A DNA stretch of 50,787 nt. Source: Ilumatobacteraceae bacterium. Lineage in GTDB: Bacteria; Actinomycetota; Acidimicrobiia; Acidimicrobiales; Ilumatobacteraceae. The stretch's first letter is position 1; the number at the start of each line of letters is the position of its first letter. Below the pieces are notes generated by a model. That model was given only the letters and a program-made list of their open reading frames with translations. It did no database searches and was not told the origin of the DNA. A program made the position numbers and the translations under genes. Shown piece by piece: positions 8,937 to 18,152 of the stretch. Location of the stretch: the NCBI GenBank assembly GCA_025463425.1, contig JAOBWQ010000068.1:1-50787 (forward strand), read 5' to 3'.

Positions 8937-11684
8937 ATGGCAGGAGATCAGGCGGGTCGTCGCGCACCGACGAGCATCGTGTCGTTCTTCGTCGTGTTCG
9001 CCACGCTGATCGTCGTCGCCGCCGGCGTCGGGACGTACTTCGTGTGGCGCGCAACCCAAAACGCAGCGCTCAGCGAGGCCACCCGCGACGCTCAGTTTGC
9101 GGCTGGCGGCGCTGCCGGATCGATCGATGCAGCTGTTCGTGATGCTGAATCGCTGGTCGTTTCAACGGCCGAATCGCCGTCGGTCGTCGTGGCGATCAAG
9201 ACACCAGCCGGCTGCACGTTGTCGTTCGCCGGGGTCGGACCGTTCACATCGGGGCACCTCGATTTCATCGGTCCGAACGGTGACGTGCGGTGCACGTCGA
9301 GTCCGACCGCGGGGACGACGTACCCGATGACGTCATGGTTCCCTGACCTCCGCAGCGGCGGACCCGCAGCGGTCGCATTGCATGCGGAGGCGTCGAAGCG
9401 TCAGGTGTTGGTTGTCGTGGGGGCGGTTCCCAGTGGTGGTTACGTCGCGGCATTCCTCGATGTCGACGTGCTCGGCGAGGGGCTCAGCGCGCTGTACGGC
9501 GGGCGCAGAAATCTTGAGTTCGTGGTCGCGACGCACAGCGACGAGCGGATCCTGACGAGATCGGTGGACGACGCTGCCTGGCGGGGCAAGTTGGTCGCGG
9601 ACACCAAGCTCGCAGGTGTGGGAGCCGGCGGGAGCCACCCCGACGTTGCCTCGGTGCCGCGGGTCTATTCGAGAGCCGGCACCACCGAGGCCGTGGATTG
9701 GTTCGTGTACGCGGGAGCCGATCGAACGACAGCGATCTCGGAGGGCACCTCGGACTTCCGACTGCTCATCATCGTGGTCGGTGCGGCAGTCCTCGGCCTG
9801 CTGGCGCTGTTCGCGGTGATGTACCGCCGAATCGTGGGACCGATCCGCGCCCTGTATCGCGGGACCCGAGCCCAGCGCTCGAGCCCCTTGGTCGTGCCGC
9901 TGCCCGTCAACGGACCCCGGGAGATCGGCGCGGTGGCGCGAGAGCTCAACGCGGTGATGAGCGAGTTGAGCGAGTCCGAGCAGACGTATCGGGTGTTGTT
10001 CGACGGCAACCCCCAGCCGATGTGGGTGTGGTCGCTCCGATCGGGCTGCTTCCTGGCGGTCAACCAGGCAACGATCGACCTCTACGGGTACACGCGAGAG
10101 GAGTTCCTCGCGATGCGGGTCGACCAGATCGTGCCGAGTGCGTATGGCAACTCGGCGACGGACGGCGTTGATTCGGCCGGCGTGAGACGTGTCGCCCATT
10201 CTGGACCGCTGGTCAAGTCCGGGCCGTGGACCCACGTGATGAGATCGGGTGACACGATCAGTGTCGAGGTGACCTCGCAGGACTTCACCTATCTCGGTGA
10301 GCCTGGACGATTCACGATCGTCGTCGACATCAGCGAGCGGCTCGAGCACGAACGGCAGCTGCAGCACCTCGCGCTGCACGACGAGCTCACCGGACTTGCC
10401 AACCGGACGCTGATCCTCGATCGGCTGTCGTCAGCGATCGGCCATGCGCAGTCACAGTCGCGCGTCGCCGTGCTCTTCGTCGATCTCGACGGCTTCAAGC
10501 TGATCAACGAGGTACATGGGCACGATGCGGGCGACCACTTGCTGACCGTCGTCGGCCGGCGCCTGTCGGAGGGACTGCGCCCGACCGATTCGATCGGTCG
10601 AGTGGGCGCGGACGAGTTCGTCATCGTCTGCCCCCACCTCTCCGGTGAGACCGAGGCGATTGCAATGGCGAGTCGAGTCGAGGGACTGCTTGCGCTTCCG
10701 ATCGAGCTCGAGGGGACCAAGACGTTCGTCACGGCCAGCGTGGGCATCAGCATGTCCACCGACGGCTCAGCGCCCACTCACCTCGTTCGCGACGCCACGC
10801 TGGCGATGAACCGAGCCAAGGAGCGCGGTGGTGATCGGTTCGAGATCTTCGACGAGGGGATGAGAGAGCGAACCCTCGTCAAGCTGGCCACGATCACCGA
10901 GCTCCGCCGCGCCGTCGACAACGACGAGCTGCGCCTGCAGTTCCAACCCGAGATCGACTTGTCGACGGGCGTGTGCAATGGCTTCGAGGCATTGGTCCGG
11001 TGGGAGCACCCGTCGAGAGGTTTGCTGGCCCCAGCGCACTTCGTCGAGCTCGCCGAGGAGACCGGCTACATCGTCCAGCTCGGCGCATGGGTGCTCGACG
11101 CAGCGTGTCGTCAAGCCGCCACATGGGTCCGCCAGGGCCTCGCGGTCGGCACGATCTCCGTGAACCTGTCGGCGCGAGAGCTGGCTCAACCATCGCTCGT
11201 CGGACAGGTCAGCTCGGCATTGGATCGGTCCGGACTCGAGCCGGGCAGGCTCTGCCTGGAGATCACCGAGACGTCCTTGATGGACGATCCCGACGGTGCC
11301 GTCTCCGTGCTCGCGGCGCTCCGGGATCTCGGGGTCAAGTTGAGCATCGACGACTTCGGCACCGGGTACTCCTCGTTGCAGTACCTCAGGCGCTACAAGG
11401 TCGACTACCTGAAGATCGACCGAAGCTTCGTCGCCGGCCTCTGCTCGGACCCACAGTCCACCGCGATCGTGTCCAGCGTGATCCGCCTCGCCCACGCGCT
11501 GGAGCTCGCGGTGGTCGCGGAGGGCGTCGAGTCCGTCGAGCAGGCAGAGATGCTCACTGCGATGGACTGCGATCTCGGGCAGGGATACCTGTGGTCTCGG
11601 CCGGTGTGGCCGGTGGATGTGCCGGCGCTGTGCGGACGAACGTTGATCACGCCGCGTCCGCTCGTCTCGACGGTCCTGGGATGA
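8937..11684 (+). CDS. Membrane sensor c-di-GMP phosphodiesterase (periplasmic sensor-HAMP-PAS-degenerate GGDEF-EAL)
   Basis: The N-terminal TM segment, extracytoplasmic region and second TM are followed by a PAS region (YRVLFDGNPQPMWVW). The GGDEF domain has a GADEF signature. The EAL domain has intact EALVRW, DDFGTGYSSL, KIDRSFV and EGVE motifs. Confidence 0.92.
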   Translation: MAGDQAGRRAPTSIVSFFVVFATLIVVAAGVGTYFVWRATQNAALSEATRDAQFAAGGAAGSIDAAVRDAESLVVSTAESPSVVVAIKTPAGCTLSFAGVGPFTSGHLDFIGPNGDVRCTSSPTAGTTYPMTSWFPDLRSGGPAAVALHAEASKRQVLVVVGAVPSGGYVAAFLDVDVLGEGLSALYGGRRNLEFVVATHSDERILTRSVDDAAWRGKLVADTKLAGVGAGGSHPDVASVPRVYSRAGTTEAVDWFVYAGADRTTAISEGTSDFRLLIIVVGAAVLGLLALFAVMYRRIVGPIRALYRGTRAQRSSPLVVPLPVNGPREIGAVARELNAVMSELSESEQTYRVLFDGNPQPMWVWSLRSGCFLAVNQATIDLYGYTREEFLAMRVDQIVPSAYGNSATDGVDSAGVRRVAHSGPLVKSGPWTHVMRSGDTISVEVTSQDFTYLGEPGRFTIVVDISERLEHERQLQHLALHDELTGLANRTLILDRLSSAIGHAQSQSRVAVLFVDLDGFKLINEVHGHDAGDHLLTVVGRRLSEGLRPTDSIGRVGADEFVIVCPHLSGETEAIAMASRVEGLLALPIELEGTKTFVTASVGISMSTDGSAPTHLVRDATLAMNRAKERGGDRFEIFDEGMRERTLVKLATITELRRAVDNDELRLQFQPEIDLSTGVCNGFEALVRWEHPSRGLLAPAHFVELAEETGYIVQLGAWVLDAACRQAATWVRQGLAVGTISVNLSARELAQPSLVGQVSSALDRSGLEPGRLCLEITETSLMDDPDGAVSVLAALRDLGVKLSIDDFGTGYSSLQYLRRYKVDYLKIDRSFVAGLCSDPQSTAIVSSVIRLAHALELAVVAEGVESVEQAEMLTAMDCDLGQGYLWSRPVWPVDVPALCGRTLITPRPLVSTVLG

Positions 11685-13819
11685 ACGCCATCGACGACGC
11701 CGGCGGCCACGGTTTCGGCTGCCGACACTTCAGCAGTGCGAACAACCAGTACGTCATCGCGTACCTGCGGGCGCGCACCCCGGCCGGCACCCTCGAACGA
11801 GTGCTGGCGCGCGCCGGTGAGGTTCGATCGCCGGAGGTCCTCGTCGACCCGGGCACATGGAGCACGTACGAAGAGTTTCGCCGCCTGCTCGCCGCCTGCG
11901 TTGCCGAACTCGGCGAAGAGGTGCTTCCCGAGTTCGGTCTCGACTCGTTCGCCGACATCACCACCCCCGACACGGCGGCAATGCTGGCAGCGTTCGGTTC
12001 ACCCGCCGCGTTGTACGCGGACATCGGCCCGGCCGCGGCCGGAGTCTCCCCGATCGTCGCGATCAGCGGCCAACCCGTCGGCGAGACGGAGTGGCTGATG
12101 AGCATGCACTTCGAGCCGGGCTTCGAACCATTTCGCGAGTACTGCAGGTACGCGTCAGGTCTCGTGGCGGTGACGCCCCGACTCTTCGGGTATCAGCCGG
12201 CCACCGTGGTCGAGGAAGCATGTCAGTGCTACGGGGATCCCGCGTGCGTCCTTCGCGTCACGTGGGAGCCGACTGACGAGGCGACCCGACGCACGCAGCA
12301 ACTCGACGTCCAGGTGCAGATGCTGCAGGGGAGCCTCGAAGCCCTGCAGGTCACCGTCGGAGACCTGGTCTCCGGTGAAGGCCTCGATGTGGTGCTGACC
12401 CGGATCGTCTCTTCGGCCGCTCGCGCCGTCAGCGCGCCAAGTTTTGTGCTCGCGATCGACAGCGGGGTGAAGAGCTCGAAGCGGGTCTTCTCCGATGGGC
12501 TCGCGCCCGGCGAGGCGGAAGAAGTCGCCGGCGCGCTCCTCGACGGCGTCCGGCAGACGGACTCGCACTGCCTCGTCGTCGACCTGACCTCGACCCGTCG
12601 CAACTACGGACGCCTCGCGGCGCTGAAACCGAATGGAGAGTTCTATCCGCAGGAGCTCTCGACCCTTCGTGCGTACGGCCGCCTCGCAGCCGCCGCACTC
12701 GACGCGGCCGCGGCGCACGAAGCGACACGCGATCAAGCGGCGCGCGCCCAAGCGCTGCTGACCCTCTCGATCGCGCTCGCCGAAGTCGCCTCGTCCGACG
12801 AGATGGCCCAGCGCATCGCGGATGCGATGCTCTCGGTCATCGATTGCGACCGTGCGCTCGTCATCCTCGCCGACGGGCCGACGGATGGCCGCGTGGTCGG
12901 GATCGCCGGCTACCCCCCGCATCTTGCCGCCGCTCTCGTTTCGCGAAGGTTCGCCTTCGAGGTCGGCGCCGAACCCGAGGTGACGATCGAACAACGCACG
13001 GCGCCGAACGGAGGACCGATCTCCGGTGGTCAACGCGCCATGGCTTTGACCGGGACCGTCGCGTCCGCCTCGTTTCCGCTCACTTCGGACGGACAGCTGC
13101 TGGGGTTCATCTCCGCGAGCGTGACGAACCAGCCCGAGCGGCTGACCAAGTCTGCCGATCTCGACGTGCGGTTGCGCGGGCTGGGAAGTCAGGCGTGCAC
13201 GGCCCTCAACAACGCCGCCCTCCTCGAACGAGTGCGGCACCAGGCCTTGCACGACGGCCTCACCGGGCTGCCGAACCGCGCGCTGATCCTCGACCGCGCC
13301 GAGCAGATGCTGGCCCGGGCCCAGCGCTCGGATGTCCCGGTGGCCGCGTACTTCATCGACCTCGACAACTTCAAGCTCGTCAACGACACCCTGGGTCACG
13401 CCGCCGGCGACCAGATGTTGCGAGCAGTCGCCGACCGCCTGTCGGGGATCCTGCGCGCGCACGACACGCTCGGAAGGCTGGGCGGAGACGAGTTCGTCGT
13501 GCTCGCCGAATCCGACTCGCTGGAGCGAGGAGCTGTCTGGCTCGCGGCCCGACTCCTCGACGAGTTCTCGACCCCGTTCCCGCTCGAGGGGTTCATCAGT
13601 CGAACGGTGGCGACCTCGGCCAGCATCGGAATCGCAACTGGTTGGCGGGCGACGGCTGATGAGCTGTTCCGCGACGCGGACATCGCCCTCTACCGTGCCA
13701 AGGCGGCCGGCCGGGGACGAGCGATGGTGTTCGAGCCGTTCATGTTGGGCGAGGCGATGCGCGAGCTCGAGGGCGAGTTCTCACAGCTCCCCGCCGGTTC
13801 GCAACGATCCGGCGTGTAG
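11681..13819 (+). CDS. Cytoplasmic diguanylate cyclase (V4R-like N-terminal sensor-GAF-GAF-GGDEF)
   Basis: The ATG at 11681 overlaps the upstream stop as ATGA. The C-terminus has canonical RLGGDEF with RAHD (an RxxD I-site) 5 aa upstream. The central regions are GAF-like. The N-terminal module ends with EEACQCYGDPACVLRV. Confidence 0.88.
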   Translation: MNAIDDAGGHGFGCRHFSSANNQYVIAYLRARTPAGTLERVLARAGEVRSPEVLVDPGTWSTYEEFRRLLAACVAELGEEVLPEFGLDSFADITTPDTAAMLAAFGSPAALYADIGPAAAGVSPIVAISGQPVGETEWLMSMHFEPGFEPFREYCRYASGLVAVTPRLFGYQPATVVEEACQCYGDPACVLRVTWEPTDEATRRTQQLDVQVQMLQGSLEALQVTVGDLVSGEGLDVVLTRIVSSAARAVSAPSFVLAIDSGVKSSKRVFSDGLAPGEAEEVAGALLDGVRQTDSHCLVVDLTSTRRNYGRLAALKPNGEFYPQELSTLRAYGRLAAAALDAAAAHEATRDQAARAQALLTLSIALAEVASSDEMAQRIADAMLSVIDCDRALVILADGPTDGRVVGIAGYPPHLAAALVSRRFAFEVGAEPEVTIEQRTAPNGGPISGGQRAMALTGTVASASFPLTSDGQLLGFISASVTNQPERLTKSADLDVRLRGLGSQACTALNNAALLERVRHQALHDGLTGLPNRALILDRAEQMLARAQRSDVPVAAYFIDLDNFKLVNDTLGHAAGDQMLRAVADRLSGILRAHDTLGRLGGDEFVVLAESDSLERGAVWLAARLLDEFSTPFPLEGFISRTVATSASIGIATGWRATADELFRDADIALYRAKAAGRGRAMVFEPFMLGEAMRELEGEFSQLPAGSQRSGV

Positions 13820-15334: not shown

Positions 15335-15784
15335 CTACGAGGCAGCGGCGGTGGTCGCCTCGATGGCGTCTGGTGATGCGGTCTGGTGCTGTCCGAGCTG
15401 AACCTTGCGAGGCTTGGCCTGTTCGGCGACCGGGATGCGCACGGTGAGGACGCCATCGTGCAGGTCCGCTTCGAGGTTCTGGAGATCGAGACCGTCACCG
15501 AGTTGGATCTGGCGCCGGAAGGAACCGCGGTAGCGCTCGCCGAAGTAGGGCTGATCGTTCTCTTGGCGCTGCCAGTTGCGCTCAGCCGCGATCGTGAGGA
15601 CGTTGCGCTCGACCGTGATGTCGAGGCTGTCGGCCTTCACGCCGGGCAAGTCGATGTGCACCCACACGTCGCTGCCGCGCCGAAAGGCGTCCATCGGCAT
15701 GACGCCGCCGGCGTTCTGCTGCCGACTCGACAGCCGACTGAAGAGCGTGTCGAGGTCACGGAACGGATCGGTCTGGATGATCAT
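15335..15784 (-). CDS. hsp20: Hsp20/alpha-crystallin small heat-shock protein
   Basis: The alpha-crystallin domain reads DVWVHIDLPGVKADSLDITVERNVLTI ... GVLTVRIP. I chose the ATG at comp(15782..15784) because GAAGGAG lies 8 nt upstream. Confidence 0.92.
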   Translation of the reverse strand: MIIQTDPFRDLDTLFSRLSSRQQNAGGVMPMDAFRRGSDVWVHIDLPGVKADSLDITVERNVLTIAAERNWQRQENDQPYFGERYRGSFRRQIQLGDGLDLQNLEADLHDGVLTVRIPVAEQAKPRKVQLGQHQTASPDAIEATTAAAS

Positions 15785-15830
15785 GTCAACACTCCTTCTG
15801 GGTTGTCGACCACGGTGTGGTCGGGATCGG

Positions 15831-15857
15831 TCAACATAATATGGGCGATTATGTTGA
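15831..15857. promoter_or_regulatory. Operator-like perfect inverted repeat TCAACATAAT-N7-ATTATGTTGA overlapping the hsp20 -10 box
   Basis: The 10-bp arms at 15831-15840 and 15848-15857 are exact reverse complements. They are AT-rich in a ~68 % GC background. Confidence 0.65.
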
Positions 15858-15864
15858 GTGTCAA
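15836..15864 (-). promoter_or_regulatory. Near-consensus sigma-70/SigA-type promoter of hsp20
   Basis: The minus strand reads TTGACA (comp 15859-15864), a 17-nt spacer, then TATTAT (comp 15836-15841). This lies about 50 nt upstream of the hsp20 ATG in an AT-rich island. Confidence 0.6.
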
Positions 15865-15892
15865 GTGGCTGCGTCACGCGGAGAACGATGTG

Positions 15893-15902
15893 ATTATGTT
15901 GA
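15893..15902. promoter_or_regulatory. Third exact copy of the half-site ATTATGTTGA
   Basis: This 10-mer is identical to 15848-15857 and lies 45 bp downstream of it. It overlaps a TTGACA hexamer (15899-15904) facing the recombinase-like gene. Confidence 0.5.
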
Positions 15903-15933
15903 CAGTGGTGCCTGCGAGAGGCACCATGGTCTC

Positions 15934-16830
15934 ATGTCCGAACGAGCATCCAGTCGAGCCAGCGCGGCGAGGTCGCGATCGGCGCTGGAGGGCTGGCTGA
16001 AGACTCAGCCGTCGATGAACACCCGGGCCGCGTACCGTTCCGATCTGGAGACGTTCGGCCGCTGGTGCGCTGAGCACGACGCACTGCCGCTCACGGCGGA
16101 CGCATCGACGCTCGTCGCCTTTCAGCTCGCACGCGAAGTCGTGGGAGACAGTGACTCGACGATCCGGCGGCGATGGTCGGCGCTGTCGTCGTTCTACGAG
16201 TTCGCTGTCGAGCACGAGTTGGCTGCGTCGAACCCCACGATCGGGGCCGACCGCCCGAGGGTGCGATCTGGTGATCCGAGCCCCACCCTGCGGCTGTCGC
16301 CAGCAGCCGTGGCGGCCTACCGTTCGACGGCGGCCGCGCTCGATCCACGGCTGCACGCACTCGTCGCACTGTTGGTGTCCGACGGTCTCAAGATCGGCGA
16401 AGCACTGGCCTTGGACATCGACGATGTTGCCGGCAGGTCGCCGACGACGTCGATCACCGTTCGTCGGCGAGGAGAATCGCGCCGCATCGTCATCGACCGG
16501 GACAGCGCCAAGGCGATCCGGCGGTGCATCGGTCAGCGTCGGTCCGGTCCGGTCTTCGTCAGCGAACGCGCCGGGACATCACATGCTCCGCAGCGGCTGA
16601 CTCGCTTCGGCGCTGACCACCTCATCCGCCAGCTCAGAACCGACGAGATGACCGAACCAGTCACTGCCAACGCCCTCAGGCGGTTCCACTTCTCCACTCG
16701 CCAAGCGGACGGCGCCGACCATGCCGAGGTCCGAGACGGCGCCGGTCTCGCTGATGTTCGCGGCGTCCGTCGTTACTCGAACAGGTCGGACGACGACGCG
16801 GCGAGGACGTCCAGGACGCACGCCCACTGA
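15934..16830 (+). CDS. Tyrosine-recombinase (XerC/D, phage-integrase) fold protein with degenerate catalytic residues
   Basis: The N-terminal SAM-like core-binding domain reads TRAAYRSDLETFGRWC ... RRRWSALSSFYEFAV. The C-terminal domain aligns by eye to XerD but has GLK instead of GLR, NALRR instead of HxLRH, and GAGL instead of LLGH. The Tyr in RRY is retained. Confidence 0.65.
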   Translation: MSERASSRASAARSRSALEGWLKTQPSMNTRAAYRSDLETFGRWCAEHDALPLTADASTLVAFQLAREVVGDSDSTIRRRWSALSSFYEFAVEHELAASNPTIGADRPRVRSGDPSPTLRLSPAAVAAYRSTAAALDPRLHALVALLVSDGLKIGEALALDIDDVAGRSPTTSITVRRRGESRRIVIDRDSAKAIRRCIGQRRSGPVFVSERAGTSHAPQRLTRFGADHLIRQLRTDEMTEPVTANALRRFHFSTRQADGADHAEVRDGAGLADVRGVRRYSNRSDDDAARTSRTHAH

Positions 16831-16889: not shown

Positions 16890-18152
16890 TCAGTCCGCTG
16901 TCAACTCTGCAGCGTCGTCCGCGCTCCATTCGACGACGACCACCGACGCATCGTCCTGCAGCACACCGTGCTGATGTTCGAGCACCTGGTGCACGACGAG
17001 CCGCAGGGTCTCCGGTGCCCGCTGATGCTCGGCCGCACTGTGCTCCAAGATGTCGACGAAGCGTTGGAGACCGAAGAAGTCCCGCTCTGAATCACGCGCC
17101 TCGACGATTCCATCCGTGTAGATGACGACGACGTCTCCGGGCTCCAGCTGCTCTTCGGCTGCGACCACGGTCCTGTTCGGATACCCGAGCAGGATGCGTC
17201 GACCGCCGTCGAGGGACTTGACCACCTTGCCTCCGCGCAGCAGCAACGGGGCGAGATGGCCGGCGTTGACGTAGCGGAAGGTGCCGGTCGTCAGGTCGAG
17301 CTCGGACAAAAATCCGGTTGCGAAGGTGTCTGCACCGAACTCGAGCAGCGTGGTGTCGATGTGTGCTGCAATCGCCGGCAGGTCGGCAGACCGTCGGCGC
17401 CCGTTCCGGTACGCCGCCAGCGCGAGCGCACCGATGACGCTGGAAGTCAGGTCGTGCCCGGTTGCGTCGAACATCGCCACGTGTGCGACACCGTCCTGAA
17501 CCGCATAGTCGAAGACGTCTCCGGCGACTCTCTCGGCTGGTTCGAGCAACCCGGAGATCACCATTCCGGTGCACGCGATCGTCAAGGGTGGCAGCAGTGA
17601 CCAGACCAGCTCGGAGGCCACGCTGCGCTGACCACCCGATCGAGCGCGGTGGAACTTGTCGCCGTACGGGCTCTTGGCTGCGATGAGGTGTCCGACGAGG
17701 TGAGAGAACCAACGGATCTGGTCGCGGATGCGCTCTGAGTCGACGTCGACACCCACCGGAAATCGCAGATCGATCACGCCCAGACGTTCGACGCCGTCGA
17801 GGAGTGGCGCCCACATCCGCGGCTGATCGCCGATGTGTGACTCCACGGTCTGAACCGTTCTGAACGCCCGTCCGGCGAGGGTCGAATCGACGTCCTCGCT
17901 CGGTGGAGTGTCCGCACCGTTGATGTCCAGCGGCACGAGGCACCGTTGTGCGTAATCGATGAGGTACAACCGTGCGGACCATCCCATCCGAGCTGCGGCG
18001 TCATCCACGACGGTCGGCAGGACATCTGGTGGAGCAAGGTGCGTGCCGTCGAGCAGGGAGGTGAGCTGGGCGAGCGCTTCGTCGTCACCCATGTCGTGCA
18101 CTTCGCCAGTGTACGGACGCGCCCGACGCTCGGGCGCCTGGACAACCGTCAC
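16890..18152 (-). CDS. GAF-domain PP2C (SpoIIE-type) serine/threonine phosphatase
   Basis: The N-terminal GAF-like region is followed by PP2C motifs (DVFDY, FDATGHD, VVVIYTDGIVEA, DDASVVVVEW). It starts 8 nt after the multicopper oxidase stop. Confidence 0.88.
   Translation of the reverse strand: MTVVQAPERRARPYTGEVHDMGDDEALAQLTSLLDGTHLAPPDVLPTVVDDAAARMGWSARLYLIDYAQRCLVPLDINGADTPPSEDVDSTLAGRAFRTVQTVESHIGDQPRMWAPLLDGVERLGVIDLRFPVGVDVDSERIRDQIRWFSHLVGHLIAAKSPYGDKFHRARSGGQRSVASELVWSLLPPLTIACTGMVISGLLEPAERVAGDVFDYAVQDGVAHVAMFDATGHDLTSSVIGALALAAYRNGRRRSADLPAIAAHIDTTLLEFGADTFATGFLSELDLTTGTFRYVNAGHLAPLLLRGGKVVKSLDGGRRILLGYPNRTVVAAEEQLEPGDVVVIYTDGIVEARDSERDFFGLQRFVDILEHSAAEHQRAPETLRLVVHQVLEHQHGVLQDDASVVVVEWSADDAAELTAD

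Follow-up and report, generated by a model that had tools for sequence, protein, structure and literature searches.

Which protein reads the AT-rich repeats that lie over the promoter of a small heat-shock gene is the question raised by a stretch of DNA of 50,787 nucleotides from an Ilumatobacteraceae bacterium (contig JAOBWQ010000068.1 of assembly GCA_025463425.1; the whole stretch that was analysed is called the window below). Three exact copies of the half-site ATTATGTTGA are present within positions 15831-15902 of the window, between the small heat-shock gene hsp20 and a divergent gene that resembles the recombinase gene xerD. The comparative evidence suggests, with a probability of roughly 0.7, that the three copies are the operator set of this divergent XerD paralogue, which would act as an autoregulated pseudo-recombinase repressing hsp20.

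The hsp20 coding sequence (15335-15784, minus strand, ATG at 15784) specifies an alpha-crystallin small heat-shock protein of 149 aa that matches Pfam HSP20 at 3.5e-21. Its promoter is read on the minus strand as TTGACA (15864-15859), 17 nt and TATTAT (15841-15836), with 51 nt from the end of the -10 box to the ATG, and it scores 11/12 in a promoter scan in which shuffles of the region yield close to no promoters of this quality. A perfect 10-7-10 palindrome, composed of TCAACATAAT (15831-15840), the seven bases ATGGGCG and ATTATGTTGA (15848-15857), overlies the spacer, the -10 box and the predicted +1 (around 15829) of this promoter. In particular, half-site A (ATTATGTTGAC on the minus strand, 15830-15840) holds the last five bases of the -10 box and reaches over the predicted +1, while half-site B (ATTATGTTGAGT on the plus strand, 15848-15859) is located inside the 17-nt spacer. 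The centre of the palindrome (15841-15847) is not conserved and varies in sequence among genomes; its 7 bp between the 10-mers correspond to 9 bp when counted from CATAA to TTATG. The third exact 10-mer, at 15893-15902, is part of an 11-mer that is a direct repeat of 15847-15857 and an inverted repeat with 15830-15840. It belongs to half-site C (GATTATGTTGACA on the plus strand, 15892-15904), whose last six bases are a TTGACA (15899-15904) directed at the xerD-like gene, of which it forms the -35 box. A -10-like CACCAT (15922-15927, plus strand; CATCAT in the family consensus) follows 17 nt past this -35 box and 6 nt before the ATG, and from this geometry the xerD-like mRNA would be leaderless. 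When one mismatch is allowed, these three copies are the only matches to ATTATGTTGA in the window, and the corresponding shuffle control gives a mean of 0.28 matches and three or more in 0 of 100 shuffles. The locus also coincides with a trough in GC content, at 0.52-0.54 against 0.63-0.74 on either side.

A preliminary description of this DNA had pointed to the near-consensus hsp20 promoter, to the perfect palindrome over its spacer, -10 and +1, to three copies in excess of chance and to a geometry typical of a repressor-type operator over a strong hsp20 promoter; all of this was borne out, as was the identity of hsp20 itself. It had also distinguished the operator from CIRCE, HAIR and the RheA operator, and rightly so: with up to 3 mismatches, HAIR and CIRCE have 0 matches in the window, and the RheA-type operator TGTCATC-N5-GATGACA is absent from the locus, its two matches elsewhere in the window (3 mismatches each) being at chance level. 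The operator had been called undescribed, and no account of it was found in the searchable literature. Two statements had to be revised. The third half-site is a genuine exact repeat that overlaps a TTGACA facing the divergent gene, as had been said, but rather than assisting the hsp20 operator it sits on the -35 box of the xerD-like gene's own promoter. The claim that a repressor gene is missing next to the operator is likewise not supported, as the product of the divergent 'recombinase-like' gene is the foremost candidate for binding these sites. Three properties speak for it, namely that the gene is XerD-derived, that the half-site is of the XerD type, and that gene and half-sites travel together in every arrangement examined.

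The first of these properties is found in the divergent protein. The likeliest start of the open reading frame (ORF) is the ATG at 15934, which gives a gene on the plus strand (15934-16830) and a product of 298 aa, proposed here as the operator-binding repressor. As in XerD, the protein combines two domains, an N-terminal SAM-like core-binding domain (SAM_1) and Phage_integrase, recognized by Pfam with weak scores (~1e-9). XerD is also its best match among NCBIfam families, with 82 bits against an equivalog cutoff of 329.6; XerC (66.7 against 335), XerA (59 against 220) and XerS (24 against 267) likewise stay below their cutoffs. Among solved structures, XerD is again the best match, at 1e-13 in a profile search of PDB sequences, and the AlphaFold model (pLDDT 75, pTM 0.52) has XerA, Tn1549 Int, Cre, XerH and XerD as its top Foldseek matches, with SroF (9rd5) also listed. 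The active site is degenerate. Alignment to solved XerD and XerA places Lys153 at Arg-I (GLK for GLR), Asn246 at His-II (ANALRR for HxLRH) and Leu272 at His-III (AGL for GH), so that, in contrast to XerD, the catalytic R-K-H-R-H/W-Y set is not intact, with Arg249 and Tyr281 being kept. Among 30 family members that are 58-75 % identical, Lys153 is invariant, Arg249 occurs in all, and Asn246, Leu272 and Tyr281 are each conserved in at least 90 %.

The same degeneracy extends to a larger clade. A profile search of 1.84 billion representatives returned 135 clusters at E <= 1e-30, and 69 of the full-length representatives make up what is here called the N-type clade. In these 69, Arg-II is Arg without exception (69/69), His-II is Asn in 66, and Arg-I is Lys in 53 and Arg in 15, while the position of the Tyr nucleophile is occupied by Tyr in 38, Leu in 11, His in 8, Phe in 4 and Val in 1. 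The nucleophile is thus replaced in about one third of the representatives, and a function kept throughout the clade cannot depend on it. Catalysis therefore looks dispensable in the family, as judged from the aligned residues. Canonical recombinases with R-H-R-H-H-Y appear only further down the search list than the N-type clade, and all members are annotated merely as XerD or integrase.

The second property concerns the half-site. XerD acts at dif in the resolution of chromosome dimers. The dif site of E. coli reads GGTGCGCATAA-TGTATA-TTATGTTAAAT, and the predicted dif of Frankia alni reads CACGCCGATAA-TGCACA-TTATGTCAAGT (PMC3025954). The half-site consensus TTATGTTGAGT agrees with the XerD arm at 9 of 11 positions for both E. 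coli TTATGTTAAAT and Frankia TTATGTCAAGT, a match with a calculated chance of ~1e-4 for one fixed 11-mer register. The arms are inverted, as they are in dif. In contrast to dif, both arms are here of the XerD type, and the half-site carries a G where position 25 of E. coli dif is an A, a base that is highly conserved (PMC2731167). The centre of dif is always 6 bp long, and its length is critical for cleavage (PMC2731167), whereas the arms at this locus are 9-10 bp apart and do not form the 28-bp layout of two 11-bp arms around a 6-bp centre. The sites also lie on the promoters of hsp20 and of the xer-like gene, again a difference from dif. A true dif site was rejected on account of the wrong central spacing and the degenerate catalytic residues.

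The arm sequence was also followed in a metagenome-wide scan for two arms with any spacer, in which the listed matches were swamped by low-GC sequences. With the arms CAACATAA…TTATGTTGA (L046-L165), a 6-bp centre is the commonest, with 53/136 among the matches listed, mostly of low GC and e.g. from gut metagenomes; one sequence, ACTCAACATAATAGTAGTTATGTTGAAT, recurs among these 6-bp-centre matches. They look like ordinary near-palindromic dif-type sites of other bacteria, and the sharp 6-bp peak in unrelated organisms indicates that elsewhere such arms serve in ordinary sites of the dif type. Among the matches listed, those of high GC with 9-10 bp centres are again hsp20/xer-like loci. The scan also served as an attempt to define a regulon, and among the matches listed a single possible extra target emerged: a 1.2 kb metagenome contig (L127, GC 0.65) with a 10-7-10 palindrome at 229-254, TGTCAACATAAT-CACGAGA-ATTATGTTGAGTG, located ~50 nt ahead of an ORF that resembles adenylate kinase. 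This contig carries neither hsp20 nor a xer-like gene, and the palindrome may mark a second member of the regulon or, in a database of such size, may have matched by chance.

The third property, joint inheritance, was evaluated in a scan that took one genome per species and gave 45 related loci, all from uncultured genomes (metagenome-assembled genomes) and most of them labelled Acidimicrobiia, e.g. Ilumatobacteraceae. hsp20 stands beside the xer-like gene in 37 of the 45 loci. In 33 the two are divergent, and hsp20 is 78-93 % identical to the window copy; in four, which are among the most distant, they are co-directional, with hsp20 immediately downstream on the same strand. In two further loci the contig stops before hsp20 could be called. 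What the intergenic sequences have in common is only a fixed architecture, CTCAACATAATA-N6-7-GGTTATGTTGAGTGTCAAG-variable stretch-GATTATGTTGACA-N17-CATCAT-N6-ATG/GTG. Its final part, from N17 through the hexamer and N6 to the ATG or GTG, occurs in nearly all loci, as does the TGTCAA after site B that represents the hsp20 -35 box (15859-15864 in the window). The 9-mer TTATGTTGA is conserved to ~100 % at A, B and C in 31-43 loci, with proteins that are 52-83 % identical, and outside this intergenic region its exact form is almost absent from the ~350 kb of sequence examined. The sequence of a promoter spacer is usually under little constraint. Here, a conservation of ~100 % in 31 loci goes beyond the hexamers and includes B in the spacer, the GTTGAG of A downstream of the -10 box and the GATTATG of C upstream of the -35 box. 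Site C is the most conserved and the most widespread of the three, being present in 42/45 loci, including the operon-type ones and one locus (L001) that has no hsp20. The distance from CATAA to TTATG is 9 bp in 17 loci and 10 bp in 8. Individual losses affect A in six genomes and B in another six, and the co-directional loci have a single half-site per promoter. One operon-type locus (L032) has, ahead of xer-like and hsp20 at 2940-2970, three head-to-tail half-sites, CTCAACATAG-TCAACATGA-TTATGTTGAC, which form a 7-4-7 palindrome with a spacing unlike that of A/B.

Around this module, flanking genes are not conserved among the related loci. A mobile or phage origin was considered and discarded, as no relatives of the family were found on viral contigs and no mobility genes are present in the window flanks. 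Some homologues (P0028, P0053, P0054, P0065, P0093 and P0106) have N-terminal extensions that start with 'MLT…' or hold 'DYVD' or 'YVECQ'. These extensions are the translated operator (ATG TTG ACN; GAT TAT GTT GAC), which means that their starts have been wrongly placed within site C or before it; translation probably begins at the leaderless ATG or GTG instead.

The association persists at larger distances. An HSP20 gene lies beside six distant members with enough contig (P0144, P0190, P0152, P0231, P0172 and P0162), down to 127 bits, and it does so irrespective of the nucleophile. In P0144 and P0190 the Tyr is replaced by Leu: the former is followed by HSP20 and then by a DnaJ_C gene, and the latter has a C-type site upstream and a TTGACG-N18-TATTATGTTGAG promoter before the downstream HSP20. 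In P0152 and P0141 the Tyr is replaced by His: P0152 has an A-type hsp20 promoter, TTGACG-N17-TATTATGTTGAG, and P0141 has an exact GATTATGTTGACA upstream and an A-type half-site, TATTATGTTGAGTG, plus a Shine-Dalgarno (SD) sequence downstream, at the contig end. Among the members with Tyr, P0162 shows TCCACATAAT-N7-ATTATGTTGACA ahead of xer-like and hsp20, with the right arm serving as the -35 box, while P0231 (the member at 127 bits) and P0172 are divergent from HSP20 and have the palindrome. Thus, members devoid of the Tyr retain the same half-sites and the same linkage to hsp20. The nearest canonical recombinases, P0184 and P0191, have no hsp20 next to them, their neighbours being zeta-toxin, MobC/NikA or Prim-Pol genes. 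The DnaJ_C-domain gene after hsp20 on the P0144 contig, together with a RelA_SpoT gene beside the hsp20 of P0172 (L173/L174), hints that the module may be able to sit inside larger groups of stress genes.

A further regularity is seen in the distance that separates site C from the hsp20 operator. Measured from B to C, it is 22-24 bp in 20 loci, 33-34 bp in five, 45-46 bp in four, and 79 bp and 125 bp in one locus each. The longer spacers have no sequence in common and hence represent independent insertions. The extra lengths are +10/11 or +22/23 bp, so that the spacing grows by about 11 bp at a time, a helical phasing with R=0.97 and p≈3e-5 against uniform lengths. Such phasing is a constraint that keeps site C on the same helical face as the hsp20 operator, which is expected if proteins bound at both places touch.

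Taken as a mechanism, these observations would fit a XerD paralogue that lost the chemistry of recombination and kept the sequence-specific binding of a XerD-type dif arm. Two subunits would occupy the inverted arms A and B, 9-10 bp apart, and block RNA polymerase at the strong hsp20 promoter. Another subunit would bind C, over the -35 box of its own leaderless promoter, and cause autorepression. Indeed, the position of A/B over the spacer, -10 and +1 and of C over the -35 box of the regulator fits repression, and the location of C on the regulator's own promoter fits autoregulation. The complexes at A/B and at C would touch on one helix face across 1-3 turns, as recombinase subunits do in a synapse. 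Heat or proteotoxic stress would then release the protein and induce hsp20; as candidate modes of sensing, the oligomer may itself be heat-labile, or unfolded proteins or chaperones may titrate it.

Of the competing explanations, the one that survives best, though it is unlikely, is that an unlinked and still-unknown stress repressor binds the operator and that the recombinase-like neighbour is a bystander or is itself co-regulated. The geometry of the operator alone names no binding protein, and a classical helix-turn-helix repressor gene is not adjacent, both of which leave room for this explanation. It has to contend, however, with sites that stay with the xer-like gene whether the layout is divergent, co-directional or palindrome-plus-operon, while all other neighbours change, and with a site C that persists where hsp20 is absent (L001). 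It also leaves unexplained why a XerD-type arm should lie beside a XerD-derived protein.

Active site-specific recombination, in the form of a dif-like module with its linked gene or of an invertible promoter switch with A and C as its inverted repeats, is considerably less probable. It draws on the tyrosine-recombinase fold, on the dif-like arms, on the 11-bp perfect inverted repeat formed by A and C, and on the retention of Tyr281 and Arg249 in the subfamily. It also has a precedent in single-Xer systems, where, as in XerS/difSL and XerH/difH, the recombinase gene is linked to its own binding site (PMC2731167). Those systems are active, have intact catalytic residues and are near the terminus, whereas the window protein is degenerate and scores far under the XerS cutoff, as it does under those for XerD, XerC and XerA. 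In the one complete chromosome retrieved (L011, OZ257157.1), the module lies at 2.36 of 5.26 Mb, i.e. at about 45 %, a position in favour of a dif-like role only if the record begins at the origin. Against recombination stand the invariant change of Arg-I to Lys and the nearly invariant changes of His-II to Asn and His-III to Leu, as well as the loss of Tyr in about a third of the clade, where sites and linkage are still kept. The centre is variable and 9-10 bp long instead of the strict 6 bp of dif, and A or B is singly lost in 12 genomes. The interval between A and C is just 52 bp, and an invertible A-C switch of the FimB/FimE type was rejected, as no variant with inverted orientation occurs in the window or in any of the 45 related loci and the active site is degenerate.

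It is more doubtful still that the repeats are promoter architecture only, that is, extended -10/-35 or UP-like elements of two back-to-back promoters that RNA polymerase or a special sigma factor recognises, with no dedicated DNA-binding protein taking part. Each copy does meet a hexamer (TATTAT in A, TGTCAA beside B, TTGACA in C), but B lies entirely in a spacer, the identical 9-mer is ~100 % conserved although its register relative to the promoter differs among the three copies, neither B nor C can be read as a TANNNT -10 box, and no fixed upstream partner is available as the B-C spacing varies. A SigH/SigR-type promoter starting from the GTTG of the half-site was also dismissed, no GGAAT being visible by eye at the required distance. 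Equally improbable is that the xer-like protein, once bound to the sites, activates hsp20 and its own gene or serves them as an architectural factor: C abuts or overlaps the -35 box as class II activator sites do and the helical phasing would also suit contacts between activator and polymerase, yet a hsp20 promoter that already scores 11/12 should need no activator, and A/B over -10 and +1 occupy a repressor's position.

Several points weigh against the autoregulated XerD paralogue as the repressor of hsp20. Its support is wholly comparative, an unlinked factor might recognise the same sites, and the position of site C, on the -35 box or immediately before it, would also suit an activator. With Tyr281 kept in at least 90 % and Arg249 in all members of the window subfamily, residual DNA cleavage is possible. 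The structural model is only of moderate quality (pLDDT 75, pTM 0.52). Finally, the absence of A or B in some genomes and the single half-sites of the co-directional loci suggest that a model of a dimer on a palindrome is incomplete.

The proposed arrangement has counterparts in known systems of heat-shock control. In Streptomyces albus, the small heat-shock gene hsp18 and its dedicated autoregulating repressor RheA are divergent and separated by a short intergenic region with inverted repeats, and RheA is intrinsically thermolabile. The present locus likewise pairs a small heat-shock gene with a divergent, proposed autoregulating repressor, although the protein family is unrelated and the RheA operator is absent. 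HspR/HAIR and HrcA/CIRCE share with it inverted-repeat operators over heat-shock promoters in Actinobacteria but involve other repressor families. The TTGAGT of site B is similar to a HAIR arm, but with respect to the dyad it points the other way. The searchable literature yielded no account of a heat-shock gene controlled by a Xer-derived regulator.

Repressors with a recombinase fold have been described in phages. MrpR (YopR) of the prophage SPbeta is a DNA-binding repressor that acts on repeated elements and has lost recombinase activity (PMC10516654), and SroF of phi3T is likewise a DNA-binding repressor on repeated elements, with a recombinase/integrase-like fold that has lost this activity (bioRxiv 10.1101/2025.11.27.690993). 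One substitution renders MrpR heat-sensitive (PMC10516654), and hence a recombinase fold can give rise to temperature-dependent repression. The window protein resembles these repressors in its tyrosine-recombinase fold, as judged by Pfam and Foldseek, the latter with SroF 9rd5 among the fold matches. At the level of sequence, catalytic residues are lost in the family and no rearranged variants occur among the loci seen. MrpR and SroF are repressors of the lysis-lysogeny decision of phages, whereas a chromosomal stress regulator with a dif-arm-like operator is proposed here. A specific kinship was dismissed, as the profile search of PDB sequences detects no sequence relation of MrpR or SroF to the window family at E <= 10, which speaks for independent derivation and analogy of function. 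Recombinase-fold repressors are thus already known from SPbeta-like phages, and what the comparison adds here is a putative repressor that is chromosomal, XerD-derived and paired with a dif-arm-like operator.

Other features of the locus accompany the module. The SD sequence of hsp20, AGAAGGAG (15792-15799, minus strand), was read from the sequence, and its AAGGAG is conserved in related loci. A 5'-proximal hairpin of the leader, CGACCAC-ACC-GTGGTCG on the mRNA strand, is predicted at 15807-15823 (minus strand). A GC-rich hairpin at the predicted 5' end of the hsp20 leader is present in nearly all related loci, with its structure kept and its sequence differing. It does not pair with the SD sequence of hsp20, and the leader matches no Rfam family at E <= 1. 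An RNA thermometer or other known RNA element was accordingly ruled out for the leader, the SD sequence not being sequestered by the hairpin, which could instead stabilise the 5' end of the mRNA. The segment from the SD sequence to the start, GGAGTGTTGAC-ATG (15785-15799), is conserved in most loci and contains a TGTTGAC that is similar to the half-site (ATGTTGAC) and is matched by site C as an inverted repeat of 8 bp. This segment could be a fourth partial site or merely the context of ribosome binding. The neighbours of the module in the window are a phosphatase of the SpoIIE/PP2C type that has a sensor region at its N-terminus (16890-18152, minus strand) and a large GGDEF-type ORF (10973-13819, plus strand). 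Neither is kept beside the module elsewhere, with a relative of the phosphatase found in L014 and L022 only.

When the view is widened from the window to the family, the balance tips slightly towards a clade-wide role. In high-GC uncultured bacteria, of which those with a label are Acidimicrobiia, the whole clade of chromosomal XerD paralogues may consist of non-recombinase, autoregulated regulators of small heat-shock genes. Recognition of the dif arm would have been reused for operators, contacts of the recombinase style would bridge two promoters along one helical face, and the assembly might itself be the sensor of heat or stress. These proteins would then represent a new class of heat-shock regulator beside sigma-32, HrcA, HspR, CtsR and RheA, and the first cellular bacterial tyrosine recombinase turned into a transcription factor.

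To our knowledge, nothing is known experimentally about the control of heat shock in Acidimicrobiia, and the system would add a new class of regulator to bacterial heat-shock control in this group. It would also provide a natural conversion of an enzyme into a transcription factor in which both partners can be traced, from XerD paralogue to repressor and from dif arm to operator half-site, and it would imply that recombinase-fold repressors, so far restricted to SPbeta-like phages, arose independently in cellular genomes. Hundreds of annotations as 'XerD' or 'site-specific integrase' in these genomes would probably not denote recombinases, and several of the annotated starts would be mis-called inside the operator. 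With two genes and ~150 bp, the system is small and of interest to the fields of both heat-shock regulation and site-specific recombination.

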